NCBI GenBank assembly: GCA_018692915.1
Contig: JABHLG010000006.1
Location: 5,627-69,626, forward strand
From: Candidatus Woesearchaeota archaeon
GTDB taxonomy: Archaea; Nanobdellota; Nanobdellia; UBA10117; JABICX01
Reading direction: 5' to 3'
Length of the DNA stretch: 64,000 nt
A program made the position numbers and the translations under genes. Positions 1,444 to 53,867 of the stretch are shown here, piece after piece. The notes below the pieces were generated by a model, which ran no database searches, had not been told where the DNA came from, and saw only the letters and a list, made by a program, of their open reading frames with translations. The number at the start of each line of letters is the position of its first letter. The stretch's first letter is position 1.

Positions 1444-1746
1444 TTATCCGAATAAAGCACCTAATCCAGCAGCAGCTTCTTCATTGTTTTCTTCTTTCTT
1501 TTCTTCCTTTGGTTCTTCAGCTGGAGCTTCACTTGATGGTGCAGCAGCGCCGGCAGCAGGAGCAGCAGCAATAGTTGTTTCAGCTAGGACTTTTTCTATG
1601 TCAACGTCCTTTAATGCTGTTACAGTTGCTTTCACTCTTGCATCGTCAACTTTAACGCCTGCAGCAGTTAGTGTCTTTTTTAAGTTCTCGTCATTTATTG
1701 TCTGCCCTGCTTTGTGCAGTAACAGAGCACCGTATAGATATTCCAT
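1444..1746 (-). CDS. rpl12: Ribosomal stalk protein P1 (L12e)
   Basis: MEYLYGALLLH N-terminus, Ala/Glu-rich hinge, and the conserved C-terminal peptide AAAGLGALFG. Confidence 0.9.
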   Translation of the reverse strand: MEYLYGALLLHKAGQTINDENLKKTLTAAGVKVDDARVKATVTALKDVDIEKVLAETTIAAAPAAGAAAPSSEAPAEEPKEEKKEENNEEAAAGLGALFG

Positions 1747-1748
1747 TT

Positions 1749-2717
1749 CTATTGGCCTCCTTGATTGTCATCTTTTGTCTCCGCAGGAGTTTCCTCTTTT
1801 GGAGCTGATTCAACTTCATTATCTGAAGTTTCAGATGATTCTGATTGTTCCTCTTTAACTAGTGCGTCAGGAACTTTTTCTTTTAATGTAGCAGCTTGAG
1901 ATTCTGCTTTCTTAAGTAAATGCTCTTTTGTTTCATCACATAAAATATCTGCACCAAATGCTAATTTCTTTGCATCAGTGTGAGCTTCTTGTAATTTGAT
2001 TGTAACTGTTTCTGGTGTAAGAATGTTTGCACCAAGAGCTAGTTTCTTAGCATTTAAGATTGCTTGTTTAAGATTATCTGTGTATTCATCAATATCGATA
2101 TTAAGAACACTGCGCTTGTATACTTCACCATTTTCTACAGCAACAACTAAGTTTAGACCAATTTTCATTGGTTTAATATCTAAACGTGCTAATATTGCAG
2201 CAGCAGCAGCAGGTACTGGTTCACCTTCTTTAACAACTAATGAGTCTTTTTTAACTACAACTTTTCCACCATCGATTCCAGCAACAATATTTGCTGCACC
2301 TAAATCTCCAATAATTGGTCCTGGTGCAAATGGTGTTGGACCTGCTTTAACCCAAATATCTTCCGGCGCAATTTGTCCAGTTTTTGCTGGAGCATCAGTC
2401 ATGTTATCTTTAAGAATTTTAAATAATTCAAATGCATTTTTATTTGTTAAAATAAGTGCAGGCATTCCTTGAATATATTCTCTGATTTGTTTTAGTTCTT
2501 CTTTTCCACATTTGTCTAAAGCTAATTTAATTAATCTTTTTCTTGTTACAATTATTTCAGCATGCTCTTTAATTTTAGAGCGTATAACTTGACTTTGTCT
2601 ACTAGGGAGATTTTCTAAATTAATAACTGCAATCGTTTTGTATTTTGGAAGTTCCTTGATAATATTATTTACCATATCTTTCTTCCAAGGTTGAACATGT
2701 GCTGTGTGCTCTGCCAT
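1749..2717 (-). CDS. rpl10: Ribosomal stalk protein P0 (uL10)
   Basis: 322 aa with typical P0 N-terminal and insertion domains. Sits in the L1-P0-P1 operon order. Acidic tail is present. Confidence 0.9.
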   Translation of the reverse strand: MAEHTAHVQPWKKDMVNNIIKELPKYKTIAVINLENLPSRQSQVIRSKIKEHAEIIVTRKRLIKLALDKCGKEELKQIREYIQGMPALILTNKNAFELFKILKDNMTDAPAKTGQIAPEDIWVKAGPTPFAPGPIIGDLGAANIVAGIDGGKVVVKKDSLVVKEGEPVPAAAAAILARLDIKPMKIGLNLVVAVENGEVYKRSVLNIDIDEYTDNLKQAILNAKKLALGANILTPETVTIKLQEAHTDAKKLAFGADILCDETKEHLLKKAESQAATLKEKVPDALVKEEQSESSETSDNEVESAPKEETPAETKDDNQGGQ

Positions 2718-3364
2718 TATATTTTAATTGGAGCCCCCATAGTTGTTTTGATTAGAATGTTTTTGATATTAGCGTTTTTTCTTGGAAGTGAGTTTTCAAT
2801 TTGGTCTATTGCAAATAATATATTTTCTGCAAGTTTTTCATCATCCATTTTTTCATCACCTATTCTGCAACTTGCGATAGGCATTTTTGATATCATGATT
2901 TTTGAAGTATTTTTTAATTTCTTAACAATTGGGTCTAAGTTTAAGTTTGGAGGAACGATTTGTCCACCTTTTGGATTTGGCATTTTACCAATTGGACCAA
3001 AATACTTACCAAAAACCTGTGCGATTTGAGGCATTATGTTTGCTTGACCAATAAAGAAATCATATTTTCTAGCTAATTTTCTAACTTTTCTTGCGTCTTT
3101 GTATTCTGGAAAATTATCTGTGAAAACAACATTATCGCATGCAGATACATTTGTCTTCATTTCTTGACCAACTAAAGCACATACTGTTGCGTCTTTTCCT
3201 CGGCCATGTGGTAATGTAATAAAGTCATCTATTTTTGCTTCTTTTTTAATATCAAATTCTTTTAGATTTATAATTAAGTCAAATGATTGAGAAAACTTTC
3301 GTTCTTTTGATTTTTCTCTAGCTAGTTTTATCGCTTCAAGGATTTTTTGTTTATTTGCTGCCAT
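2717..3364 (-). CDS. rpl1: Ribosomal protein uL1
   Basis: MAANKQKILEAIKLAREKSKERKFSQSFDLIINLK... is a typical L1 N-terminus. I prefer the internal ATG at 3364 over the ORF-track start at 3394. Confidence 0.9.
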   Translation of the reverse strand: MAANKQKILEAIKLAREKSKERKFSQSFDLIINLKEFDIKKEAKIDDFITLPHGRGKDATVCALVGQEMKTNVSACDNVVFTDNFPEYKDARKVRKLARKYDFFIGQANIMPQIAQVFGKYFGPIGKMPNPKGGQIVPPNLNLDPIVKKLKNTSKIMISKMPIASCRIGDEKMDDEKLAENILFAIDQIENSLPRKNANIKNILIKTTMGAPIKI

Positions 3365-9097: not shown

Positions 9098-9159
9098 AAA
9101 ACTTTTACAAAAGTTTCATCAAAAACTTGTTTGCTATGCAAACAAAGCCTTCGGCAAAA

Positions 9160-9567
9160 CTATTGGTTACCTCCTTCTTGCTCTTCAGCAGACACCTCAG
9201 CTTTTGGTTCTTCCTTTTTCTCTTCAGCTGGTTTTTCTTCTGGCTTAGCTTCAGCAACAGGTGCTGGAGCAGCTTCCGTTTCTTTCTTTGGTTTTGGAGT
9301 GTTTCGTTTAACAATATATTTTGGTTCTTTTCTTTCTAATTCTTCTTTTGATTTGTAAACATGTGCTAATCCTCTAATTGAATCTTTACCAAATTCAGAA
9401 TCTATGCTAATGATTGCGATTGTTTCAGCTTTGTGCCCGATTTTTGCAGCGATTAAGTCACTAGTTTCTTGTCGTGTTGGGGTTGCGCCAGTTCCAGTTG
9501 CTTTGAATGTGATATCTTCTCTATCAAAAAGTGCGTTTTTATTCTGTTTTATAATTTTAAAATCCAT
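9160..9567 (-). CDS. rps24e: Ribosomal protein S24e with a K/E/P/A-rich C-terminal tail
   Basis: MDFKIIKQNKNALFDREDITF...GLAHVYKSKEEL core. An extra low-complexity tail of about 35 aa follows. Confidence 0.85.
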   Translation of the reverse strand: MDFKIIKQNKNALFDREDITFKATGTGATPTRQETSDLIAAKIGHKAETIAIISIDSEFGKDSIRGLAHVYKSKEELERKEPKYIVKRNTPKPKKETEAAPAPVAEAKPEEKPAEEKKEEPKAEVSAEEQEGGNQ

Positions 9568-10697: not shown

Positions 10698-11231
10698 ATG
10701 TTTAAAACTCTATTTATGGCTAAACCTGATGATTACAATAAGACTGCGAAGATTTACAATAATCGTTATAGAGAAACTCAATTTGAGAAATATCGAATAA
10801 TGCTATCAGGTCTTAAACTAAATGGGCAAATTTTAGATCACGGTTGTGGCACAGGACTTTTAGGTGAATTTTTAGCTTCTTGGGGGAGCGAAGCGGGGGA
10901 AGTTGGTAAGAGGGCATGGCTCTTACATGGATGTGATAGTTCTAAAGAGATGCTTAAAATTCGAGGAGCTGGAGATTTGTGTAATGTAGAAAAATTGCCT
11001 TACAAAAACACAGAGTTTGACTTTGTGTTAAGTTTCTCTATGTTGATGAATTGTAAAAATCCTGAAAAAGTAATCAAAGAAATCAAGCGAGTTCTTAAGC
11101 TAAATGGAACTTTTGTATGTACTTTTCTAAAATCCTTTGAATCTAAATTAAAACCTCTTCTTGAAAAACATTTTAAAATTCAATTAGAAACAAATTGCGG
11201 AGAAGATGTAGGATTCTTGTTTAGACTCTAA
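10698..11231 (+). CDS. Class I SAM-dependent methyltransferase
   Basis: Motif I is ILDHGCGTGLL, with an acidic motif II region. Contains a GC-rich in-frame insertion (10878..10926). Confidence 0.75.
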   Translation: MFKTLFMAKPDDYNKTAKIYNNRYRETQFEKYRIMLSGLKLNGQILDHGCGTGLLGEFLASWGSEAGEVGKRAWLLHGCDSSKEMLKIRGAGDLCNVEKLPYKNTEFDFVLSFSMLMNCKNPEKVIKEIKRVLKLNGTFVCTFLKSFESKLKPLLEKHFKIQLETNCGEDVGFLFRL

Positions 11232-11259
11232 CAAATAACTTGAATCTATCTTTCTCTTC
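11221..11259 (-). pseudogene. Displaced duplicate of the last 13 codons (including stop) of the DUF655 gene
   Basis: Encodes EEKDRFKLFVRV*, identical to the functional end at 11355..11317. 7 of 39 nt differ and all are synonymous. It overlaps the methyltransferase stop convergently. Confidence 0.85.
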
Positions 11260-11316
11260 GAAACTTTTCAAAAAATTTTCACTAAAACGTCTAATTGTAA
11301 CAGAATACCGACAGAA
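11260..11316. repeat. Hairpin element, short form (family copy)
   Basis: gaaacttttcaaaaaattttc (compare gaaactttttcagaaaaagtttc at 51077) followed by aaaacgtct...cgacagaa (compare aaaacgttgct...cgcaacaataa). Abuts the DUF655 stop codon. Confidence 0.7.
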
Positions 11317-11871
11317 TTAAACACGAACAAACAGCTTGAATCTGTCTTTTTCTTCTAGCTCATCCATTATTCTTTGTATAACTAATTTCTTTGGGTTTGA
11401 GACAGAGCTAACTCTAGTTTTAATATCTTCAAAACTAACAAATGGTCGAACTTCTCTTTCTTCTAATAGCTCTTTTGCATGTCGCTTTCCAATGCCTGGA
11501 AGTAGCTCAAGAGTGTGTGCTCTAAGTGAGATTGGTCCAGAATAGTTAAAGAAATTAACAAATTTCTCTTCTCTTTTATCAACAAGACTTTCAATTATGA
11601 ATTTTAACTCGCTTTTAGCTGTCTGAGTTAGTTTTTCATTTGGTAGAATTCCTCTAATCCATGCAATCTGATCTCGTTCACCTTCACCAATGTAGACCTC
11701 ATCATGTGCTTTTAGAGCTATATCTGGTTTAGGAACTAATTCAAAAAGTGTAAAATGGTCACGACCTAGTGCCTGAACAACAGGTTCTTTCTGATGTAAT
11801 GGTCTAGAGTCCTCTGGATAGCCGTTCTTCAAAAAATCTAATACGATTGCATATTCTTCTTTCGCTCTCAT
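11317..11871 (-). CDS. DUF655 / COG1491 predicted RNA-binding protein
   Basis: MRAKEEYAIVLDFLKNGYP N-terminus and a C-terminal HhH-like region. Has the conserved archaeal neighbourhood with rpo4. Confidence 0.75.
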   Translation of the reverse strand: MRAKEEYAIVLDFLKNGYPEDSRPLHQKEPVVQALGRDHFTLFELVPKPDIALKAHDEVYIGEGERDQIAWIRGILPNEKLTQTAKSELKFIIESLVDKREEKFVNFFNYSGPISLRAHTLELLPGIGKRHAKELLEEREVRPFVSFEDIKTRVSSVSNPKKLVIQRIMDELEEKDRFKLFVRV

Positions 11872-12944: not shown

Positions 12945-14312
12945 TTACATTCCAGGTAGTTTCATACCACCGGGTAAGCCACCTTTGCCACCCATCATTT
13001 TAGCTAATTGCTTCATCTTTTGAGGGCTGCCCATTGACTTCATCATTTTCTGCATCTGCTTGTATTGCTTAAGTAATCCGCGCACTTCTTTTTCATCAGT
13101 GCCCGAGCCATTAGCGATTCTGTTGATTCTAGAAGCATTCATAACATCAGGATTTTCCTTTTCTGTTGGAGTCATAGATTGCATAATAAATTTCCATGTT
13201 TTCATTTTGCTTTCTTGACCTTTAAGCGCATCTTTTGGAACTGCTCCACCCATTCCAGGTATCATACCCATAATTTGTGAGAGCGGACCCATTTTTTGCA
13301 TTGCTTCCATTTGATCATATAAATCTTGAAGTGAAAGTCCTTGACCTTTTGTAACTTTCTTAGCTAATTTCTCAGCTTTATCTTTGTCAATTGCACCTTC
13401 TGCTTTTTTTAGAAGAGTTTCTAAATCTCCCATTCCAAGAATTCGAGATACAAAGTTCTTTGGCTTGAACTCTTCAATTGCATCCATTTTTTCTCCAACT
13501 CCAATAAACATAACTTTTGCTCCAGTAGTTGCGCAAGCTGTTAATGCACCTCCACCTTTTGCAGTTCCATCTAGTTTTGTAATTACAACACCTGTAACTC
13601 CAACGTTTTTGTGGAAAGATTCAGCTTGAGATTGTGCACCTTGACCAATGTCTCCAGAAAGAACTAGAAGTGCTTCATCAGGATTTACTGCTTTATTTAA
13701 CACCTTGATTTCATCTGTTAGCTCTTTGTTTAGAGAATCTCGTCCAGCTGTATCAATTATAACAACATCATATTTTTTGAATTCCTTTTCAAATTCTTTG
13801 ATTATATCTTCAGGTTTTTTAGCAGATGAATTTCCATAAAAATCAACTTTCATTGCTCTAGCTAGCTGCTGTAGCTGTGCATATGCAGCAGGTCGCCATG
13901 TGTCTGTTTGAACAACTGCAACTTTTTTACCTTGTTTTTTATAGTATCGTCCAAGTTTTCCTGCAGTTGTTGTCTTTCCAGACCCAAATAGACCAACTAG
14001 CATTATCTTAGTTGGCTTTTTCTTAAATTCAATCTCTTTGAACTCTTTTCCAAGGAAGTTAGTTAGTTCTTCAAAAACAATATTTACAACATGCTCGCGA
14101 GTTGTTAGACCTTTTGGAGGAGTTTCATTTGTTCCTCTGTCTCTGATTTTCTGAGCAATTTCTTTAGCTAAAGTAATATTAACATCAGCTGCTATCAATG
14201 CTTTTTTGATATCAGAAGATAATTCAATAACTGCTTTTTTATCAACTAGCCCTATATTAGTTATTTTCTTCAAACTTTCCTTTAGTCTATCTGATAATGA
14301 GTCTAATACCAT
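12945..14312 (-). CDS. srp54: Signal recognition particle protein SRP54
   Basis: N domain, G domain (GLFGSGKTTT, DTAGR, TKLDG) and a Met-rich M domain. Confidence 0.95.
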   Translation of the reverse strand: MVLDSLSDRLKESLKKITNIGLVDKKAVIELSSDIKKALIAADVNITLAKEIAQKIRDRGTNETPPKGLTTREHVVNIVFEELTNFLGKEFKEIEFKKKPTKIMLVGLFGSGKTTTAGKLGRYYKKQGKKVAVVQTDTWRPAAYAQLQQLARAMKVDFYGNSSAKKPEDIIKEFEKEFKKYDVVIIDTAGRDSLNKELTDEIKVLNKAVNPDEALLVLSGDIGQGAQSQAESFHKNVGVTGVVITKLDGTAKGGGALTACATTGAKVMFIGVGEKMDAIEEFKPKNFVSRILGMGDLETLLKKAEGAIDKDKAEKLAKKVTKGQGLSLQDLYDQMEAMQKMGPLSQIMGMIPGMGGAVPKDALKGQESKMKTWKFIMQSMTPTEKENPDVMNASRINRIANGSGTDEKEVRGLLKQYKQMQKMMKSMGSPQKMKQLAKMMGGKGGLPGGMKLPGM

Positions 14313-14329
14313 ACTTTTTAGCAGAAATG

Positions 14330-14350
14330 GAGGTTTTTAAGTGCTTTGAT
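14330..14350 (-). promoter_or_regulatory. Promoter block shared by srp54 and ftsY (TATA-like TTAAAAAC)
   Basis: gaggtttttaagtgctttgat begins 18 nt upstream of the srp54 ATG. 20 of 21 nt match 18928..18948, which sits at the same spacing from the ftsY ATG. Confidence 0.55.
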
Positions 14351-14406
14351 TAGAAGATTATAACCGTTAATCTTATAAACTAGTCATTACACAGTAGCAC
14401 TATAGT

Positions 14407-16410
14407 ATGACACTTTCAGAAGTAAAAAATTCGGTTCAAGAAACTATATTTCTTAAAGACCGTATCAAAACAAGTCTAGAAAAAATAATTAAGTTAAATA
14501 AAGAGATAGATCCTGGTGATGACGGATATAAACGATTTGTTAATGCTAAGTCTGATGATATAATGCCATATGTTCAATCTAACTGGACTGATCTTGATGA
14601 GGCTTCGCTGGTTAATGATAGTCAAGTGATTTTATTTGGAGATACCAATCATGCAAAAACAGGTAATATTGGCGGTATGGCAAAGTATATACCTCTTTTG
14701 AAGAAAGCAGGAATTACTGATGTAGCTATTGAGTTTCCAAGAGATGAGAAGAATCTCGAAGCAGTTACTCAGTTTAATGAGACTGGAGACTTGTCTCTGA
14801 TACGACCTATTGCAAATCAGACAAGAACACCTGTACGAATTGTTAGATTTTTTAGAAACGCACATCAAGAAGGAATGAATGTATCTTTAATAGATATGCC
14901 TGAAAAATCTCGGGATTCAAAATGGAGCACTACCCAACTTAACTATCAAAGAGGAATATATATGGGCCAAGTTCTTTCTGAGTTAGCTGAAGATTCTAAT
15001 GTTAAAATTGCGGCTTTTTGTGGTGCGGGACATTTTAGAGAAAAAGAAATACCGAAACAACTAACTGATGATAATATTGCATTTAAGAAATTTGCAGTTG
15101 TTACTCAAGGACAACCTATGTCGTTTATACTTCCAGATAATCAATATGAGATCGGCCCAGCAAATGCAGTAAATAGATGTGATTTATCTAATCGTAGTGG
15201 GTTTGTTGATTTAAATAATAATTACGATTTAGATGGATTTATATATTTTACAAAATCTAGTCTTATTGAGGATCAGAAATCTGCTAAATTAATTCTTGAT
15301 GATATTTCTAGTATTATCCCTTCTGTAGATGCACCAAAAGAAAACGCATTAGCACATTTAACTGGAAGCACAGCAATTCAAACAATTTCACAGCATTTTG
15401 GAAATCGTGTGGATCCATCATTATATACCTGGGAAGGCACAAATACTGAAAAGATTTATGATTTTGTAAATAATATTGACAGTCTAAATAATGGACAGAA
15501 ACTTCATCTATCAATTATGCTGGAGAATTATGTTCGTACTACTCTGCGTCATGGTGGAGGTTCTATACTTAGAATGGAATTTGATTCAGATGCAAACGCA
15601 TTTGGTATAGATACTATTGATACTTTTGGAAAGAAATTTGATGCAGAAGAGTATGCTGCTGCACGTGGAAAACACAGAGAAGTTACGTTAGATATGTTAC
15701 TTTCACAATATAATTTTGAAGACATAATGATTAAAGACGTAAGTCAAATACCTGAGACAGATATTTTACCTAATCCAGAAAATCTAGAAAGTGCACATAA
15801 GGTTATGATATTAATGTCTGCGTATGCGACGCACCCAGAACGGATTACGTGGGCAAATGATCGAAGTACACCTATGATTGGAGTTTATCGGGAAGGAAAT
15901 CATAATGATGATTATATTACTCGACTTGGTATTGAAGATTTTCTATTAACTGATATGGAGAGCAAGCTAGTTGATTTTGAAAAAAAGAATTCCGAGTACA
16001 CTCATAATATGGATAAGTTAAATACATTATTCTATTCATTTAGTAAAGATAAAGCTCTTTCTTTTAGTTATCGTAAAAAAGTGAAAAATTATAGCAGTGA
16101 GTTCATAGCCATATTTAGTGATATTATTTATGCAAGCAATAATGTAACGCGTAAGATAATTAATGCTCGATCTGAGCTACAGTATCTTAGTAACGATTCC
16201 GCAGAAACGCTGATTGAAAATGCTTATAACAAATTAGAAACATATAACGCAGTTATTAATAATGTGGCAGATGTTATGGATAAGAAAAATGTCTATCGAG
16301 GCAAATTTTTTGAAAATGATCTTGACTTTAAGCAGATTATTCAGGATAATCGCGAAATGGTTAAAGATTTAAGAAGTAATCTTAATGACATCAGAACATC
16401 GCTTAATTAA
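14407..16410 (+). CDS. Hypothetical 667-aa protein (cassette X1); N-terminal region has ChaN/Tiki-like motifs
   Basis: ILFGDTNHAKTG ... VAIEFPRDE ... AAFCGAGHFRE resemble the GExH / GxGH pattern of the ChaN (haem-binding uptake)/Tiki/erythromycin-esterase fold. The rest is orphan. Unverified. Confidence 0.45.
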   Translation: MTLSEVKNSVQETIFLKDRIKTSLEKIIKLNKEIDPGDDGYKRFVNAKSDDIMPYVQSNWTDLDEASLVNDSQVILFGDTNHAKTGNIGGMAKYIPLLKKAGITDVAIEFPRDEKNLEAVTQFNETGDLSLIRPIANQTRTPVRIVRFFRNAHQEGMNVSLIDMPEKSRDSKWSTTQLNYQRGIYMGQVLSELAEDSNVKIAAFCGAGHFREKEIPKQLTDDNIAFKKFAVVTQGQPMSFILPDNQYEIGPANAVNRCDLSNRSGFVDLNNNYDLDGFIYFTKSSLIEDQKSAKLILDDISSIIPSVDAPKENALAHLTGSTAIQTISQHFGNRVDPSLYTWEGTNTEKIYDFVNNIDSLNNGQKLHLSIMLENYVRTTLRHGGGSILRMEFDSDANAFGIDTIDTFGKKFDAEEYAAARGKHREVTLDMLLSQYNFEDIMIKDVSQIPETDILPNPENLESAHKVMILMSAYATHPERITWANDRSTPMIGVYREGNHNDDYITRLGIEDFLLTDMESKLVDFEKKNSEYTHNMDKLNTLFYSFSKDKALSFSYRKKVKNYSSEFIAIFSDIIYASNNVTRKIINARSELQYLSNDSAETLIENAYNKLETYNAVINNVADVMDKKNVYRGKFFENDLDFKQIIQDNREMVKDLRSNLNDIRTSLN

Positions 16411-16656
16411 TTAAAGCATTTTCTTTAATAATTTTTTAGGGTTAAATATTTCTAAATCTTTGTATTCTTGCCCTGTTCCACAGTCTCTAATTTTCTGAGC
16501 AATTTCTTTAGCTAAAGTAATATTAACATCAGCTGCTATCAATGCTTTTTTGATATCAGAAGATAATTCAATAACTGCTTTCTTATCAACTAGACCAATA
16601 TTTGTTATTTTCTTCAAACTTTCTTTTAGTCTGTCTGATAATGAGTCTAATACCAT
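16411..16656 (-). pseudogene. In-frame chimera: first 58 codons of srp54 fused to the last about 22 codons of ftsY
   Basis: 16484..16656 matches 14140..14312 (7 of 173 mismatches, all synonymous). 16411..16479 matches 17849..17917 (4 of 69 mismatches). The junction lies at a tgttcc microhomology. Confidence 0.85.
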
Positions 16657-16681
16657 TAAAATAAAGTAAATTTTAGTTTTA

Positions 16682-16700
16682 TAAAGAAGACGAATTGAAG
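16682..16700. repeat. 19-bp perfect direct repeat, copy 1
   Basis: taaagaagacgaattgaag, identical to 17423..17441. Confidence 0.8.
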
Positions 16701-16702
16701 TA

Positions 16703-16975
16703 TTAATGTAAATATTTCAATAGACCTTTTGCACTATTTAATAATGTATTAAATCTAAAATCTTTGAATTCATCAGATATTGAGTCACAATCATTAATTA
16801 ATTCTGTCAATTCAGATTTAGTATTTAGATCGTTGACTTTTTCTATGGCTGACGAATTAATTGTACCATCTTGATTTGTTCCATGTTCGATATAAGATAA
16901 GTTATATGTAGCGAAAGCTAATCTTCCATATATTTCTAAAACTTTTTTCACCTCATCAGATGAATATTTTTTCAT
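16703..16975 (-). CDS. Hypothetical protein (cassette X2)
   Basis: 90-aa ORF, no motif recognised. Confidence 0.3.
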   Translation of the reverse strand: MKKYSSDEVKKVLEIYGRLAFATYNLSYIEHGTNQDGTINSSAIEKVNDLNTKSELTELINDCDSISDEFKDFRFNTLLNSAKGLLKYLH

Positions 16976-17008
16976 TTAACTGTACTAAATAACACTTTTT
17001 AAAGTCTT

Positions 17009-17425
17009 TTGATGTGTGATTTTATGGGAATAGAAATTCTTATGAAAAATGATTTGGAAAAAGGTGCAGAGATTCTCGAATTTTTTATGAGAAAAAGATA
17101 TTCTGAAGAAATGGATTATGATGTTGATAGAGCTTCTTTTGCGAGTACATATATAATAATGGGTTTAAAACACTCAAAAAATGAAGAGTTAGTTGATAGA
17201 ACTAAAGAAATATTGCGTCGTATAATGAATAATTATATGTTTGATGTAGATAAAGATCAGAGTTATTTATATGAATTGACAACAGTATCAACATTTTACC
17301 GGATTCCAGAAACAACTAATTTTTTAGAAAAAATAAAACAAAGTAATGACTATATAAAATTGAATGATAATTTGAAAGATAGAGTTGAACGATGTGTTTT
17401 TACTTTCGAGCAAGAAAAAAATTAA
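17009..17425 (+). CDS. Hypothetical protein (cassette X2)
   Basis: 138-aa ORF, helical composition, no motif recognised. Confidence 0.3.
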   Translation: MMCDFMGIEILMKNDLEKGAEILEFFMRKRYSEEMDYDVDRASFASTYIIMGLKHSKNEELVDRTKEILRRIMNNYMFDVDKDQSYLYELTTVSTFYRIPETTNFLEKIKQSNDYIKLNDNLKDRVERCVFTFEQEKN

Positions 17426-17441
17426 AGAAGACGAATTGAAG
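17423..17441. repeat. 19-bp perfect direct repeat, copy 2
   Basis: taaagaagacgaattgaag, identical to 16682..16700. The pair brackets the two divergent ORFs 16703..17425. Confidence 0.8.
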
Positions 17442-17462
17442 ATATCGAACTGTTTTTAAAAT

Positions 17463-17852
17463 TTGCCACTGATATTTAATATGTCAGAAATTGTTGATAA
17501 TATTTGGGAAAAAACTCGCAAGATTGCGTTAGAATTAACTATTGAAGATGCTAAAGAGATTGCAAGTGCATTTAAGTTTTTTAATGAAGCAGTTGGTACT
17601 AAGCGAATTAATGATGGAGATTATTTCTTGCATACATTTCTTGCAAATGTAGCTCGTTATCAGACTAAATTTACTGATGCGGAAAAAGATTTCTTGCTAA
17701 ATGATGCTAAAACAGGTAGAGGTCAGACAGAAACAGTTATTTTATGTATATTGAATGAGAATAGTTCTAAACATTTAGAAACCTTGGAAGAAAAGAGAGC
17801 ATATCCAATATATAATGTATTTAGTGATGCGATTAATGCTGCATATCCTTAG
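17463..17852 (+). CDS. Hypothetical protein (cassette X2)
   Basis: 129-aa ORF (non-ATG start in the track). Its stop overlaps the ftsY stop convergently. Confidence 0.3.
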   Translation: MPLIFNMSEIVDNIWEKTRKIALELTIEDAKEIASAFKFFNEAVGTKRINDGDYFLHTFLANVARYQTKFTDAEKDFLLNDAKTGRGQTETVILCILNENSSKHLETLEEKRAYPIYNVFSDAINAAYP

Positions 17853-18910
17853 AGCATTTTCTTTAATAATTTTTTAGCATTAAATAGTTCTAAATCTTTG
17901 TATTCTTGCCCTGTTCCGATGAAAAGAATTGGTTTTCCAGTTTCATAGCCCGCAGAGATTATTGCTCCACCACGCTCATCTGCATCAGTTTTTGCTACAA
18001 TTGTTCCATCAATGTTAATCATCTGAGAAAAGTATCTTGCTTGCTCAACTGCATCGTTTCCAGTTAAAGCATCTACAACTAATATTGTGAAATCAGGATG
18101 AATTACTCTTTTGATTTTCTTAAGTTCGTTCATTAAATCTTCAGAAGCGTGCTGTCTTCCAGCAGTGTCAATCATTACAATATCCAAATTTTTTGCTTTT
18201 GCATGCTCCATTGCATCATAAGCAACAGCTGCAGGGTCTGCACCATATTTGTGCTTAACCATTTTGATTTTTAGATTGTCTGCATGATGTTGTAGCTGCT
18301 CAATTGCAGCAGCCCTGAATGTATCGCCCGCTGCAAATACAACAGATTTTTTATGGTCTTGGAAATATTTTCCCAATTTAGCTAAATTAGTTGTTTTTCC
18401 AACACCATTTACACCTACAAAAAGAATTGTTAATGGCTTCTTGTTCTTTGATTCTGCTAACAAATCAATTTGTTTGGGTTTTGTAAGAACTTCTGTTAAA
18501 ATTTCCTTAAGTTTTTCAGAAATAATTTCTGCACTTGGTTTTTGTTTGTTTTCTAAAAGCTCTCTTTTAACTTCTTCAAGAATTCTTTCAGTAATATCAT
18601 AAGCAATATTATTCTGAATTAATGCATCCCCAAAATCTTCAAGAGCAGATTCTATTTTATCTTCTGAGCGCTTTGCAAAGAAACCTTTTTTCTCTTCTGA
18701 AGGGCCTGTGCCCCCTTCGACCTCCCCCGACTTCTGCGAAGTCTCCTCCAAAGGTTTATCTTCTCGGTGAAATCTTGCTGCTATTCTTTCCTTGAGGCTC
18801 TTTTTTTCTTCCTCAACAGGTTTTTCTTCTTTAATTTCTTCCTTAGGTTCCTCTACTTCTTCAACATCTTTCTTAAATTTTGAAAACGCTTCTTTTAATC
18901 GACCGAACAT
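17849..18910 (-). CDS. ftsY: SRP receptor FtsY
   Basis: K/E-rich A domain, N domain and G domain (GVNGVGKTT, DTAGR, AKTDAD). Confidence 0.95.
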   Translation of the reverse strand: MFGRLKEAFSKFKKDVEEVEEPKEEIKEEKPVEEEKKSLKERIAARFHREDKPLEETSQKSGEVEGGTGPSEEKKGFFAKRSEDKIESALEDFGDALIQNNIAYDITERILEEVKRELLENKQKPSAEIISEKLKEILTEVLTKPKQIDLLAESKNKKPLTILFVGVNGVGKTTNLAKLGKYFQDHKKSVVFAAGDTFRAAAIEQLQHHADNLKIKMVKHKYGADPAAVAYDAMEHAKAKNLDIVMIDTAGRQHASEDLMNELKKIKRVIHPDFTILVVDALTGNDAVEQARYFSQMINIDGTIVAKTDADERGGAIISAGYETGKPILFIGTGQEYKDLELFNAKKLLKKML

Positions 18911-36841: not shown

Positions 36842-37252
36842 GTGAAACAAAAAGGTAGTGCAGCTGAGAGAGAATTAGTAGCAATGTTCTGGGGAACAGG
36901 TAACTGGAGCTCATTAAGAATTGCAGGAAGTGGAAGAATGAATTTTCCAAGTCCTGATGTTTTGGCAGGTAATGGTTCACAGATTTTTGCAATTGAAGTA
37001 AAAAGCACAAAACACAAGAGCCAATATATTGATGCAGATCAGATTCAGCAATTGAGAGACTTTGCAGAAAAGTTTGGAGCAACACCTTTGGTTGCAGTTA
37101 AGTTCTCAACAAAATGGCACTTTTGTAGCCCAGATGACATGAAGAAAACCACTTCTGGAAAGCACGTTCTACATAAAGAAAAGCATAAAGATATTGTAAA
37201 GCAGTTTGAAGAAGTTATTTCACGACGACCAGACCAAATAGCTGAGGAGTGA
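36842..37252 (+). CDS. hjc: Holliday junction resolvase Hjc (C-terminus remodelled by an insertion)
   Basis: GSAAERELV...GSG....PDVLA...IFAIEVKS (E...PD...ExK of Hjc), with a GTG start. The last 12 codons read into inserted sequence. Confidence 0.8.
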   Translation: MKQKGSAAERELVAMFWGTGNWSSLRIAGSGRMNFPSPDVLAGNGSQIFAIEVKSTKHKSQYIDADQIQQLRDFAEKFGATPLVAVKFSTKWHFCSPDDMKKTTSGKHVLHKEKHKDIVKQFEEVISRRPDQIAEE

Positions 37253-37288
37253 AGCGATGTGAACTGTCGCAGTCAGTTCACTGGAGAG
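37217..37288. repeat. 72-bp GC-richer insertion with an 8-bp-stem hairpin between duplicated hjc 3' segments
   Basis: Hairpin gtgaactg (37259..37266) / cagttcac (37274..37281). Supplies the current hjc stop TGA (37250..37252). Confidence 0.6.
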
Positions 37289-37354
37289 CAAGTGTTACAT
37301 AAAGAAAAACATGCTCATATAGTTAAACAATTTGAAGAAGTTCTAAATTTGTAA
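37289..37354 (+). pseudogene. Displaced copy of the hjc 3' end (22 codons including the native-looking stop)
   Basis: Encodes QVLHKEKHAHIVKQFEEVLNL*, against HVLHKEKHKDIVKQFEEV in the gene (37163..37216). 12 of 54 nt differ, 8 at third positions. Same reading frame as hjc. Confidence 0.8.
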
Positions 37355-47556: not shown

Positions 47557-47610
47557 ATGCAATACATATCTGATTTACATCTTCATAGCAGATTTTCTAG
47601 AGCTACATCC
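47557..47610 (+). pseudogene. Displaced duplicate of the first 18 codons (including ATG) of the PHP-domain gene
   Basis: Encodes MQYISDLHLHSRFSRATS, against MKYIADLHLHSRFSRATS at 47688..47741. 10 of 54 nt differ, 7 at third positions, giving 2 aa changes. Confidence 0.85.
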
Positions 47611-47687
47611 AAACTTTTTCAGAAAAAGTTTGACCAAAAACGCTGCTCATATATAATTTGTATTAAATCGCAGCAGGAGATATATGT
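47611..47687. repeat. Hairpin element, short form (family copy), abutting the ATG of the PHP gene
   Basis: aaactttttcagaaaaagttt (identical to 51078..51098) followed by aaaacgctgctcatatataatttgtattaaatcgcagcagg (compare 51155..51196). Confidence 0.8.
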
Positions 47688-48980
47688 ATGAAATATATTG
47701 CTGACTTGCACTTACATAGCAGATTTTCTAGAGCTACATCTAACAAGCTAGACCTACCTAATCTTGAGAAATATGGTAAGATAAAGGGACTTAATTTGCT
47801 TGGAACGGGAGATTTTATGCATCCACAATGGCAGAAAGAGCTAAAGTCTGAACTAACTACAGATGGTTCTGGAATTTACAAAACAAAGTCAAGATATCCT
47901 TTTGTTCTTTCAAATGAGATTTCTTTAATGTATCGTCAGGGCGATAAAGGTCGTAGAGCACACGTTGTTCTTCTTGCGCCAAATATGGATGTTGTGGACC
48001 AAATTACAGATTACTTCAAAAAATTTGGTAGAGTTGATTATGATGGTCGACCAATATTCGGTAAGAGTATAATTGAAGTTACAGAAGGGCTAAATAATAT
48101 ATCTAATGATATTGAAATAATACCTGCACACATATGGACACCTTGGTTTGGTTTGCTTGGTTCAAAATCAGGTTTTGATTCATTTAAAGAAGCACTTGGT
48201 GACCAAATAAAGCATATTCATTCATTTGAAACAGGACTTAGTTCTGACCCTGAGATGAATTGGCGAGTTTCTGAACTAGATAAATTTACAGCTCTGTCTT
48301 TTTCAGATGCACATAGCCATTGGCCTTGGAGAATTGGTAGGGAAGCAACTTTGTTTGACTTGAAAAATCTAACTTACAAAGATTTAATTAACGCAATTCG
48401 AACACGAGACGGCTATGAAGGAACAATTGAAGTTGACCCTGGTTATGGACGGTATCATCATGATGGACACAGAAATTGTGGAGTTAGTTTCATTCCACAG
48501 ATTTCTAAAAAGTATAATGATATTTGCCCAGTTTGTAAAAAGCCACTTACAATTGGAGTTATGTATCGAGTTGAAGAATTAGCAGATAGGCCAGAAGGAT
48601 ATACACCAAAAAATGCAGCAAAAGTATACAAATTACTACCTTTATCTGATTTGATTTCTGGAGTAGTTGGAACAGGAGTAGCAACGCAAAAGGTTTGGGA
48701 AATTTTCAACAAACTAATTGATAATTTTGGTTCAGAATACAATGTTCTTCTAAATGTTTCTGCAGATGATTTGCAAAAAGTTGTGGATGAAAATATAGTT
48801 CAGTTTATCTTAAAGAATCGTGCAGGTCAGATTGAAGTTAAGCCAGGTTATGATGGTGTTTATGGCGAAGCAATCTTTGGAGAGAAACCACAACCTAAAC
48901 CATTTGTATCTGAACGCCCGGCTAGTATGGAACAACAAAAACAAATAGAAAAACCCCAAAAGAGTTTAACTGATTTCTAA
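47688..48980 (+). CDS. PHP-domain phosphoesterase with an internal zinc ribbon (COG1379-like)
   Basis: ADLHLHSRFSRATS (PHP motif I), HIWTPW, FSDAHS, CPVCKKPLT. The architecture matches the archaeal COG1379 family. Confidence 0.7.
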   Translation: MKYIADLHLHSRFSRATSNKLDLPNLEKYGKIKGLNLLGTGDFMHPQWQKELKSELTTDGSGIYKTKSRYPFVLSNEISLMYRQGDKGRRAHVVLLAPNMDVVDQITDYFKKFGRVDYDGRPIFGKSIIEVTEGLNNISNDIEIIPAHIWTPWFGLLGSKSGFDSFKEALGDQIKHIHSFETGLSSDPEMNWRVSELDKFTALSFSDAHSHWPWRIGREATLFDLKNLTYKDLINAIRTRDGYEGTIEVDPGYGRYHHDGHRNCGVSFIPQISKKYNDICPVCKKPLTIGVMYRVEELADRPEGYTPKNAAKVYKLLPLSDLISGVVGTGVATQKVWEIFNKLIDNFGSEYNVLLNVSADDLQKVVDENIVQFILKNRAGQIEVKPGYDGVYGEAIFGEKPQPKPFVSERPASMEQQKQIEKPQKSLTDF

Positions 48981-51003: not shown

Positions 51004-51038
51004 AATAAATTCTAAAATAACAGCTTTATAAAACTTCT

Positions 51039-51077
51039 TAGTTCAAGACTTCAGTAACCTTAGCTTTTATGTCTGCG
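51039..51077 (-). pseudogene. Displaced duplicate of the last 13 codons (including stop) of rps27e
   Basis: Encodes ADIKAKVTEVLN*, against ADIKSKVTEVLN* at 51235..51197. 5 of 39 nt differ, 4 of them synonymous third-position changes. Confidence 0.85.
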
Positions 51078-51196
51078 AAACTTTTTCAGAAAAAGTTTCA
51101 TCACCAAGCTGAACTTTGTTCAGCGAGGCCAAGAAAATCAAAGATTTTCTCTGGAAAACGTTGCTCATATGTGTTGGTGTTCAATCGCAACAATAA
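51078..51196. repeat. Hairpin element, long (composite) form, abutting the rps27e stop codon
   Basis: Left hairpin at 51078..51098. Inner two-hairpin module catcaccaagc-tgaactttgttca-gcgaggccaagaaaatcaaagattttctctgg at 51099..51154. Right arm at 51155..51196. Confidence 0.8.
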
Positions 51197-51409
51197 TTAA
51201 TTTAATACTTCAGTAACCTTAGATTTTATATCTGCTTTTCCGCCTTTTGATTTAGCTAAAAGTTCATCACAAACAAGGCATTTTACATCGCTTGCAGCTT
51301 TTTCGAAAATAATTTGAATATTTTTACATTTAGCACATTTTACTTTTATAAAACTTGAACTTGGACCTTTATCTTTTACCATTTTAGTTGTTCTCCTTTT
51401 GTTTTGCAA
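51197..51409 (-). CDS. rps27e: Ribosomal protein S27e
   Basis: Zinc ribbon VKCAKCKN...VKCLVCDE. The true start may be the internal MVKDKG. Confidence 0.85.
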   Translation of the reverse strand: MQNKRRTTKMVKDKGPSSSFIKVKCAKCKNIQIIFEKAASDVKCLVCDELLAKSKGGKADIKSKVTEVLN

Positions 51410-53752: not shown

Positions 53753-53867
53753 AACCTTGTGAGGTTTAAGAGACATCACCGAGCAAAACCTTAGCTTTGC
53801 GTGGCCAAGAAAACGCAAAGCGTTTTCTCTGGAATTGCATAGCAATTTGATGTATAATAAATTTGCA
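53753..53867. repeat. Hairpin element, long (composite) form, diverged copy, immediately upstream of the primase start
   Basis: Left hairpin aacct-tgtg-aggtt (53753..53766). Inner module catcaccgagc-aaaaccttagctttgc-gtggccaagaaaacgcaaagcgttttctctgg (53774..53832). Right arm aattgcatagcaatttgatgtataataaatttgc. Confidence 0.7.

Follow-up and report, generated by a model that had tools for sequence, protein, structure and literature searches.

In a 64-kb stretch of DNA from a Candidatus Woesearchaeota archaeon (contig JABHLG010000006.1; the whole AT-rich stretch, with 32% G+C, is referred to as the window), the gene for ribosomal protein S27e (rps27e) appears to have received its end from another lineage together with a short hairpin element, and its own original end has been left intact on the far side of that element. 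The organism is a Woesearchaeota-like DPANN archaeon of a tiny, symbiotic type, and its SRP54 and EndoQ proteins have 100% identity to proteins bearing the name Candidatus Woesearchaeota archaeon. The functional rps27e occupies 51197..51382 on the minus strand, with its ATG at 51382 and its stop codon at 51199-51197. It was recognized from its open reading frame (ORF) and translation, and exactly the same protein is assigned to PF01667 (Ribosomal_S27e) on contig L057, an independent ENA assembly from another sample. The last 13 codons with the stop codon of the gene in use, which we call F (51197..51235, minus strand), read gca gat ata aaa tct aag gtt act gaa gta tta aat taa from 51235 to 51197. 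A second copy, D, lies detached from the gene at 51038..51076 on the same strand, at a repeat offset of 159, and reads gca gac ata aaa gct aag gtt act gaa gtc ttg aac taa from 51076 to 51038. The two copies differ at 5 of 39 nt, four of these being synonymous third-position changes and the fifth an exchange of Ser and Ala; from D to F the changes are c>t, g>t, c>a, g>a and c>t, and the longest identical run is 16 nt. An initial annotation, made from the letters of the window alone, had reported a second, synonymously diverged copy of the gene end, and direct reading of the sequence agrees with it in the number and kind of differences; the position of the lower copy, given there as 51077..51039, was one base off.

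The insert between the two copies is 120 nt long (51077..51196) and consists of one base, a hairpin, a two-hairpin inner module and an arm. Hairpin, module and arm follow the order proposed in the initial annotation, which had given the element 119 bp (51196..51078). The hairpin, HP1 (AAACTTTTTCAGAAAAAGTTT, 51078..51098, plus strand), is a perfect 21-nt hairpin of 9 bp with a 3-nt loop, a DNA fold of -5.3 kcal/mol and an identical 21-mer at 47611-47631; it represents the conserved core of the element family described below. Its outer foot is the junction with D, with one additional base at 51077. At the other end, the right arm (AAAACGTTGCTCATAT...AATCGCAACAATAA, 51155..51196, plus strand) has a 5-bp stem GTTGC/GCAAC with a long loop and abuts the stop codon of F. 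Homologous arms are found at 47637-47675, where the stem reads GCTGC/GCAGC and has therefore undergone a compensatory change, and upstream of the gene endoQ in the related genome L060. The DNA fold of the whole insert is -24.3 kcal/mol (z = -5.4), a value not reached by any of 200 shuffled sequences, and T5 runs occur on both of its strands. Beyond D, a native spacer of 34 nt (51037-51004, minus strand) leads to the eIF2-alpha gene, eif2a (51003-50212, minus strand), whose identical counterpart in L057 carries the Pfam domains S1 and EIF_2_alpha.

The joining of two strain haplotypes during assembly, which the initial annotation had named as an outcome that would overturn its reading, is not what was found. 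The L057 contig reproduces the arrangement of F, element and D base for base, and is 99.88% identical to the window, with 4 single-nucleotide differences in 3258 nt. Two of the comparable structures described below, those at 11 kb and at SRP54, are present in ten independent assemblies of the species obtained in several projects, including the NCBI assembly GCA_018672575.1. Since the same structures recur in independent assemblies, assembly error is excluded for practical purposes.

The relatives of the window allow the resident copy to be told from the foreign one. In four relatives, whose eIF2-alpha proteins have identities of 94%, 83%, 69% and 68%, the spacer between rps27e and eif2a measures 34-79 nt and is element-free in every case. 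The closest of them, L059 (94%), has an empty site, and its 34-nt spacer, compared as the initial annotation had suggested, matches the sequence beyond D exactly. D has the L059 state at all five positions that separate it from F, and over the 39 nt L059 differs from D at 5 positions and from F at 10. When the differences are polarised with outgroups, all five fall on the F branch and none on the D branch. By the body of rps27e, D and eif2a alike, the window is sister to L059 (distance ratio approximately 0.45 relative to the distance between L059 and another relative, L058), while F is equidistant from L059 (0.256) and L058 (0.231), as expected of a third lineage. The spacer match and the L059 states in D lead us to regard D as the resident end, and F with the element as a short imported patch; as far as sequence comparison goes, D is shown to be resident at rps27e and F to be foreign. 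A model in which a breakpoint separates two large blocks of different ancestry is ruled out for this locus, as the gene body and eif2a relate alike to L059 and L058. The confinement of the changes to the expressed copy is the opposite of what would be produced by neutral decay of a target-site duplication.

Displaced gene ends elsewhere in the window

The window holds at least five displaced-end structures, at rps27e, endoQ, DUF655, hjc and SRP54/FtsY, and comparison of these loci shows displacement to be a recurrent event. Recurrence of the same element and layout had been reported in the initial annotation for 11221..11355 and 47557..47741, and both are borne out; however, the repeated part at 47.6 kb, described there as a gene terminus, is the start of a gene. 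This locus (47557..47741, plus strand) consists of D (47557-47610), a hairpin identical over 21 nt to that at rps27e (47611-47631), a linker, the homologous arm and a tail (47632-47687), and F (47688-47741), which is the true start of endoQ (47688-48980, plus strand). The 54-nt D copies the start codon and 17 further codons, the longest identical run between D and F is 26 nt, and the element arm contains a TATA-like box. At the second locus (11221..11355, minus strand), F (11317-11355) is the end of the DUF655 gene (11317-11871, minus strand), D lies at 11221-11259, and the element between them (11260-11316) is a degenerate variant with a fold z-score of about 0. Both copies encode EEKDRFKLFVRV followed by a stop codon and differ by 7 nt, all synonymous, including the codon swaps CGT/AGA and CTG/TTA; they share no identical run longer than 9 nt. 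Since D and the 3' end of a convergent methyltransferase gene have 11 nt in common, D must belong with the left flank.

A duplicated end of a different kind is found in hjc (36884-37252, plus strand), within a displaced-end structure at 37166-37354. The functional end of the gene (..KQFEEVISRRPDQIAEE, then a stop codon) is followed by an 8-bp hairpin, GTGAACTG..CAGTTCAC (37259-37281), and then by the displaced end, which encodes ..KQFEEVLNL (..VLHKEKHAHIVKQFEEVLNL) and a stop codon; the two endings differ in length past their shared part. The initial annotation had included hjc in its count of differences, which is correct with respect to the duplication, but the hairpin is unrelated to the element at rps27e.

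The largest structure, at SRP54/FtsY (12945-18910), contains a 2.1-kb insert and two successive sets of FtsY end, spacer and SRP54 start. The displaced SRP54 start comprises 183 nt and is 95% identical to the functional one, with 8 of 9 differences at third positions. A 6-nt microhomology, GGAACA, marks the point where this copy runs on in frame into a duplicate of the FtsY end, and the result is a chimeric ORF (16411-16656, minus strand) of the first 61 SRP54 codons and the last 20 FtsY codons. The contents of the two spacers differ, with three small ORFs on one side and an ORF of 667 residues on the other (ORF667, 14407-16410, plus strand, inside the SRP54 duplication). The ancestral junction, with 44 nt between ftsY and SRP54, is preserved in L115 and L116, other inserts occupy the same place in L114 and in the P0037 contig, and the F copy of SRP54 keeps the ancestral promoter spacer. 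The locus shows what appears to be the same process operating without a hairpin element, with the spacer haplotypes of two lineages in tandem. ORF667 is fixed in all ten assemblies of the species; Pfam, NCBIfam and PADLOC give no match for it, and the one similarity found, to the sequence of an RTX/MARTX toxin domain in PDB, is weak (E about 3e-4). We found no support for the idea that it is a mobilising nuclease, as it has no family match and the weak toxin-domain match alone.

One further copy of the element family lies at 9098-9159 (plus strand), where a variant of HP1 (9098-9117) is followed by a linker, a second hairpin and a 13-nt tail, and no duplication is present. This copy fills the spacer between the start of rps27ae (9097) and the stop codon of rps24e (9160-9162), two genes that overlap as TAATG in L114 where the window has the element. 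A donor haplotype would look like this, with the element alone and nothing duplicated. The four copies of the hairpin family in the window all have the same plus-strand orientation, with the hairpin on the left.

The structures with a hairpin share one topology. At 51 kb, 47.6 kb, 11 kb and hjc (with its own hairpin), as well as in L001, L031 and L060, only 0-2 nt separate the hairpin's outer foot from the interior end of D, and the other end of the insert directly adjoins the complete start or stop codon of F. The three loci outside the window answer the question, raised by the initial annotation, of whether other copies are accompanied by duplicated gene ends: L001 and L031 belong to unrelated metagenome-assembled genomes (MAGs) and have the same layout and the same hairpin (with a 59-nt repeat in L031). 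The tail between the second hairpin and the start or stop codon of F varies between 5 and 35 nt. D ranges from 24 to 183 nt over all structures, with 24-59 nt around the element and 183 nt at SRP54. A general scan of other low-GC loci for the same order of D, insert and F returned internal protein repeats alone, with thresholds that were too strict to recover the known cases.

The endoQ locus provides the best view of exchange between lineages. In L060, from a lineage with 69% identity, the region upstream of endoQ contains a 30-nt displaced start, a hairpin with T6/A7, the same arm (AAAACGTTGCTCATATACAATACGCATTAAATCGCAACAA) and the real start, whereas D in the window is 54 nt long; the junction between element and F is homologous in the two genomes, with the same arm and a similar tail. 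The site is empty in L061, L062, L117, L118 and L119. Displacement at endoQ happened independently in the window and in L060. At the protein level, D (MQYISDLHLH) matches the element-free alleles of L117 and L061, and F (MKYIADLH...NKL) matches the class of L060 and L118. Approximately the first 30 residues of the window EndoQ group with L060, and most of the remainder with L061, indicating that imported tracts extend past the duplicated part. A second boundary is seen in comparison with the P0161 genome (JGI 3300072015, 34-kb contig), where the identity is 98.8% over residues 1-246 and about 55% beyond them, with a sharp breakpoint; the upstream endoQ spacer is 171 nt in both. Such comparisons show that element-proximal gene segments, as judged from their patterns of similarity, move between lineages.

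The differences between D and F are those expected of coding sequences. Third positions account for 38 of the 55 differences in seven D/F pairs (p = 7e-8), and 15 codons change the amino acid where random substitution would be expected to change 39.6 (with a minimum of 30 in 2000 simulations). For the four loci rps27e, endoQ, DUF655 and hjc, we counted 33 differences in 61 codons, 23 of them at third positions, and 5 amino-acid changes (binomial p = 2e-5); the figures of the initial annotation (34 differences, 62 codons, 24 and 6) need this slight correction, and the synonymous bias that it drew from them stands. The pair in L001, VCGIRKI with the stop codon TGA and MCDGIRKI with TAA, combines an in-frame codon indel with different stop codons. 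Neither copy stands out as the resident one at DUF655 and SRP54, where derived synonymous states occur on both copies, relative to L114 in the first case and to outgroups in the second. The excess of third-position changes and the derived synonymous states on both copies suggest that each copy evolved as coding sequence, in separate lineages. The view that D and F are two alleles of the same gene end, each from its own lineage, is supported by these data, and the outgroups and the third-position excess likewise uphold the original proposal of two coding alleles over that of a decaying target-site duplication.

A hairpin element family of archaea

The core of the element family, approximately 31 nt long, consists of the hairpin AAACTTTTTCWGAAAAAGTTT and NAWCAAAAA(C); what comes next, a second hairpin or an arm, varies. 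The 21-mer occurs at 56 reference-genome loci, with a chance expectation below one in 596 Gb according to our own estimate, and a 30-nt core (the hairpin and NANCAAAAA) at 41 metagenome loci; family membership is shown only for the archaeal part of these 56 and 41 loci. The core is widespread in DPANN archaea, in whose MAGs it precedes a variable second hairpin, and in Methanosarcina-like contigs, and several MAGs have three or more contigs with a copy. No viral contig carries the core, and a viral origin of the element was rejected for this reason. Rfam has no family for the element in the window region or at related loci, and a literature search found its sequence in no paper.

Several features of individual loci are worth recording. 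Contigs of Methanosarcina and related organisms (L010, L019, L022, L030, L033, L036, L037, L041 and L063-L103; GC 0.40-0.45) contain tandem arrays of closely similar hairpin units of the form AAAC-T4-5-N3-A4-5-GTTT followed by GATC, among them the exact 21-mer plus GATCAAAAAC. In MAGs with bacterial labels, the 21-mer is followed by TAYCAAAAACG or GAGAAAAAC and lies inside longer multi-copy repeats; these loci are L002, L035, L039, L046 and L050 (Oscillospiraceae MAG WRAG01, termite gut) and L006, L015, L018, L026, L027, L054 and L055 (Rhodothermaceae MAG JBGRQB01). The presence of the 21-mer there may reflect a shared mobile element, convergence or binning error. On two DPANN-like metagenome contigs, L072 and L096, the outer foot of the hairpin is 1-2 nt from an apparent start codon (MKPNTIYDKF.. 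and MALFALRTAAN..).

Some copies are inserted in RNA genes: at the canonical position 37/38 of a tRNA-Pro gene (L053), in the T-loop of a tRNA gene (L044), in the tRNA genes of L089 and L091, and in the 3' domain of a full-length 16S rRNA gene (L065; SSU_rRNA_archaea, 1386 bits). ARAGORN misses such interrupted tRNA genes, and we analyzed them by hand and with our own scanner for bulge-helix-bulge (BHB) motifs. The strict scan of the true introns gave outer, central and inner helices of 5/4/10 bp in L053, 5/3/4 bp in L044 and 8/4/9 bp in L065, and the left arm of the hairpin and a distal complement form the inner helix. Removal of the insert restores the tRNA or small-subunit rRNA in L053, L044, L089 and L065, and none of the copies in RNA genes has flanking repeats. 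The BHB junctions and the restored RNAs indicate that the family includes real archaeal introns. A separate observation concerns L032, an Anstonellales MAG in which the 16S gene (1481-2730, minus strand) matches the Rfam model in two pieces (876-1333 and 1345-1467); these are approximately 720 nt apart, pointing to a second and much larger insertion in addition to the hairpin element.

The copies at the window loci are of another kind. The strict BHB scan gives nothing above the background of 8.7 candidates per 370 nt there, and no BHB motif on the sense strand is in the register from F to D (159 or 131 nt). The reading frame of rps27e is complete ahead of the element and has its own stop codon, and splicing is not needed to restore it.

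The 56-nt inner module of the rps27e insert (51099..51154, plus strand), which breaks the otherwise conserved order of hairpin, linker and arm, is a separate second small element nested in the first. A second copy, 79% identical and with compensatory stem changes, lies at 53774-53834 (minus strand), approximately 40 nt upstream of the start of a primase-like gene. Modules of this family have two hairpins and end in GGTGATG; the stems of the two copies are ATC/GAT in one and ACGC/GCGT in the other for one hairpin, and GCTGAAC/GTTCAGC and GCAAAGC/GTTTTGC for the other. A BHB-like candidate on the plus strand at the inner module would excise 51095-51150. The resemblance of 51103-51085 (minus strand; GTGATGA-aacttttt-CTGA) to the boxes of a C/D small RNA was also considered; the spacing is too short for a guide, Rfam gives no match, and we rejected this candidate.

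We also compared the element with known classes of mobile DNA. Copies are dispersed in multiple numbers within and between genomes, as in miniature inverted-repeat transposable elements (MITEs). Terminal inverted repeats of the MITE or DNA-transposon type are not present at both ends, one end being the palindrome HP1 and the other a variable arm, and there is no target-site duplication of fixed length: the flanking repeats vary, have diverged with synonymous bias, and do not occur at 9.1 kb. The IS4-type transposase gene of the window (33487-34440) has no inverted repeats that match the element, and we rejected kinship with it. No integrase was found between the repeats or nearby among the annotated genes, which cover part of the window, and the hairpin inserts are only 29-120 nt long. 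A single attachment specificity is not apparent, as the core lies beside rps27e, endoQ, DUF655, rps24e/rps27ae and other genes in other MAGs. Junctions have no conserved target motif, and no tnpA or tnpB is found among the annotated genes of the 64-kb window, as would be expected for IS200/IS605 elements. A diversity-generating retroelement was rejected in view of the substitution pattern, which is not confined to adenine, and of the lack of a reverse transcriptase among the annotated genes. The possibility of an intrastrand triplex in the T5..A5..A5 core is no closer than a loose analogy.

Possible origin of the displaced ends

In the best explanation, in which our confidence is a little better than even, a gene end linked to the element would have been imported from another lineage by recombination that was homologous on one side only, the joint at the end of the hairpin being non-homologous. 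In the donor, a lineage related to this Woesearchaeota-like organism, the element would have lain directly outside rps27e, as it does between rps24e and rps27ae at 9.1 kb. Donor DNA comprising the gene, the F codons and the element up to the outer foot of its hairpin would then have been incorporated into the resident chromosome, by homology on the side of the gene and by a non-homologous join, 39 nt inside the resident gene, on the side of the hairpin. The gene side would be in frame and seamless because the join there is homologous. As a result the gene would now end with imported codons and an imported stop codon, and D would be left beyond the element, still attached to its native spacer and neighbour. 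The differences between D and F would be mostly synonymous because each was in use as a gene end in the lineage where it evolved. For rps27e, transcription might terminate at the T5 runs of the element, which are of a kind suited to archaeal termination, and for endoQ the arm, with its TATA-like box, might provide a promoter. We infer this order of events, and with it that the hairpin fixes the joint, either as a defined end of the element or as a block to copying of the donor; the terminator and promoter functions are likewise putative. As for the joints themselves, the microhomology GGAACA is present at SRP54-FtsY, and the hairpin junctions are seamless on the gene side and have no evident microhomology. 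A donor tract that continues into the anchoring gene is seen at endoQ, while the body of rps27e looks resident.

A number of observations weigh against this explanation. A donor haplotype, with an F-like end of rps27e and the element but without D, was not found, although no search aimed at donors was made. Homology-facilitated illegitimate recombination in its generic form does not predict a joint at the foot of the hairpin in six cases, and no microhomology is seen at the hairpin joints; the precision of the joint hints at a defined end of the element, and hence at an enzyme or a copying block. The import at rps27e seems to be limited to F and the element, approximately 160 nt, and since the last 126 nt of the gene body look resident, very little homology would have been available to anchor the recombination. 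Unless the inner module was a later insertion, copying outward from F would also have had to get through its two strong hairpins on the way to HP1. The whole case is built on comparative sequence.

In a second account, which we put forward as a tentative possibility, the element and the adjoining gene end would together be an actively mobile, gene-free "homing cassette". A trans-acting activity, for which a nuclease or machinery related to that of BHB introns would be candidates, would cut or end the DNA at the foot of the hairpin. The attached coding sequence of 24-60 nt would serve as an address to element-free alleles in other lineages, and the replacement start or stop codon, together with the element's own promoter or terminator, would make the insertion harmless.

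An unlikely further route is Campbell-type integration, in which a small circle of the element and a gene-end fragment, either DNA or cDNA of a circular RNA, would have entered by one crossover. This would give exactly the order of F, element and D, with the foot of the hairpin as the closure junction of the circle, and the SRP54/FtsY locus, with its gene end, spacer and gene start present twice and its novel in-frame junction, would fit a circularised junction fragment. From tRNA and rRNA transcripts, BHB introns of the family would be released in circular form, as is generally known of archaeal splicing. A crossover between D and F could even restore the circle, making a self-propagating integrative element addressed by homology. 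However, with such integration no donor sequence longer than D would be present on the gene side, and this limit is exceeded at endoQ, where the tract reaches about residue 30 (compared with 18 duplicated codons) and, in P0161, residue 246. Duplex DNA circles of 100-160 bp are hard to form, no reverse transcriptase was found in the window (the annotation of which is partial), and at rps27e the crossover would be confined to the first 5 of 39 nt.

We give somewhat less credence still to an origin in two steps, in which the element transposed to a position 39 nt before the stop codon, splitting the gene, and recombination with a foreign allele later restored the end as F, only genes rescued in this way being retained by selection. 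The precise hairpin end at D would then be the original insertion junction, and both the variable tails of 5-35 nt and the extension of F exactly to the gene boundary would be explained. The element does insert as a discrete unit elsewhere, as in the clean insertion at 9.1 kb and in the tRNA and 16S introns with their precise boundaries. On the other hand, a damaging insertion into essential genes (rps27e and SRP54-type loci) and its rare rescue would have had to occur at least six times, and the homologous junction between element and F at endoQ in the window and L060 is a better fit to an element and F inherited as a unit.

The remnant of a site-specific integration, with D and F as repeats resembling attR and attL and the hairpin as the leftover of an integrase-bearing element, is very unlikely. 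Elements that target the 3' ends of genes and supply a replacement end are classical, as is generally known, and identical runs of 16 nt at rps27e and 26 nt at endoQ could be read in this way. Yet no integrase is annotated in or near the inserts, and the only transposase is that of the unrelated IS4-type gene at 33.5 kb. The core stands beside at least five different genes, at starts and ends alike; the length of D varies at one and the same locus (30 and 54 nt at endoQ), and the longest identical run at DUF655 is only 9 nt. Furthermore, the tRNA and rRNA copies have no flanking repeats and viral contigs give zero matches.

A function at the level of RNA is highly improbable. According to this explanation the element and one copy of the gene end would form an mRNA intron, so that both endings were used, and the genuine BHB introns of the family (L053, L044, L089 and L065) would make it plausible and would account for constraint on both copies. 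The BHB scan of the window loci, with nothing above background or in register, speaks against it, as do the stop codon of F itself and the conservation of D, for which its recent origin as the resident end accounts; an alternative splice from F to D was rejected for the same lack of a BHB motif in register. Finally, metagenome assemblies can mis-join strain variants and many transposons make direct repeats, but an assembly artefact or a long, decayed target-site duplication is hardly credible given the identical structure in L057 with its 4 differences, the related structures in ten assemblies, a D of 24-183 nt, the synonymous bias and the location of the rps27e changes wholly on the expressed copy.

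Relation to known systems

The closest parallel to one-sided import is found in fungal mitochondria, in the gene hybrids formed by mobile ORFs (mORFs) in atp6 of Allomyces macrogynus and in atp6, atp9, cox2 and nad3 of Glomus (PMC3630166). As in the window, these consist of a gene body, an in-frame foreign C-terminus, a mobile insert and the displaced native C*-terminal part; the native copy is closer to relatives, the protein is largely kept, and the arrangement has been read as horizontal transfer with one homologous side (PMC3630166). The native copy is nearer to relatives in the window as well, at rps27e (5/39 compared with 10/39) and at endoQ, where D matches the element-free alleles. The insert of mORF hybrids encodes an endonuclease, and cleavage by this enzyme drives the event (PMC3630166), whereas the archaeal inserts are hairpins of 29-120 nt. 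None of the hairpin inserts contains an ORF, and hence no mobile endonuclease ORF like those of mORFs. The structures in the window further differ in that they lie in archaeal chromosomes, that gene starts have been replaced as well, and that no cognate nuclease was identified. The initial annotation knew of no described archaeal element with such behaviour; the mitochondrial hybrids are a close parallel, although not one from archaea.

In bacteria, the displacement of C-terminal ends in Rhs, contact-dependent inhibition (CDI) and type VI secretion system (T6SS) effectors has been attributed to homology-facilitated illegitimate recombination (PMC5361080 and the Rhs studies cited there). There, too, homology in the conserved part of the gene provides the anchor, the new end is functional and the old one is orphaned downstream, and the illegitimate joint can use microhomology (PMC5361080), as GGAACA at SRP54-FtsY. 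These effectors swap different toxin tips under diversifying selection, while the archaeal ends encode the same housekeeping protein and would therefore bring no gain to the host, and only the archaeal joint is tied to a specific hairpin element. The SRP54/FtsY structure can also be compared to the lpl cluster of Staphylococcus aureus, in which the unit is formed by the 3' end of a gene, a spacer and the 5' end of the next gene (PMC2568036). SRP54/FtsY has two copies of such a unit with different spacers, produced by recombination within the genes. The lpl genes are tandem paralogues that recombine at a conserved central region, whereas SRP54 and FtsY are single-copy and the second unit would come from another lineage.

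With respect to the element itself, the BHB introns of archaeal tRNA and rRNA genes, for which transposition has been proposed (PMC4090602, PMC4496867), are similar in that the core of approximately 31 nt forms the inner helix of true introns and the family is small, multi-copy and located at non-homologous positions. The copies in the window, however, lie outside reading frames and have no BHB motif, and duplication of gene-end DNA is undescribed for BHB introns. Prokaryotic small palindromic repeats and MITEs, such as repetitive extragenic palindromic (REP) sequences and REPINs (PMC3116915; reviewed in PMC3184786), resemble the element in being short, multi-copy, hairpin-forming, mostly intergenic and often nested or arrayed (as in the Methanosarcina-like contigs, L004 and L013), and, like other structure-forming repeats (PMC4666352), in being tied to local genome rearrangement. 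They differ from it in their terminal inverted repeats or target-site duplications and linked genes of the RAYT/TnpA type, none of which was seen here; it is also unusual for such repeats that the 31-nt core is conserved across archaeal phyla and used as an intron. The element family and the displacement of gene ends in archaeal chromosomes are absent from the literature searched; the layout and homology-anchored illegitimate recombination are known.

Replacement of gene ends and starts by imported alleles in archaeal chromosomes, in association with a gene-free insert, raises the question of what sets the joint and whether a trans-acting enzyme exists. The use of one 31-nt core both as a spliced intron and as an insert at gene boundaries, in DPANN archaea and in Methanosarcina arrays, makes the mobility of archaeal BHB introns directly testable, and the homing cassette, if true, would tie intron-like elements of archaea to homology-addressed spreading at the level of DNA. 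Five structures in 64 kb and the breakpoint in endoQ show that recombination between diverged lineages is frequent in these archaea with small genomes, and the displaced fragments are built-in records of donor and recipient alleles. Annotators should be aware that these fragments also give rise to spurious short ORFs and to chimeric ones like the SRP54-FtsY fusion. Apart from these structures, the window contains a probable mobile or defence island at 27438-34440, comprising an ORF of 336 residues with a weak CARF-like match (27438-28448), a type IIG-like restriction-modification gene (28889-31618), a DUF2779/Cas4-like gene (31645-33129) and the IS4-type DDE transposase gene (33487-34440).

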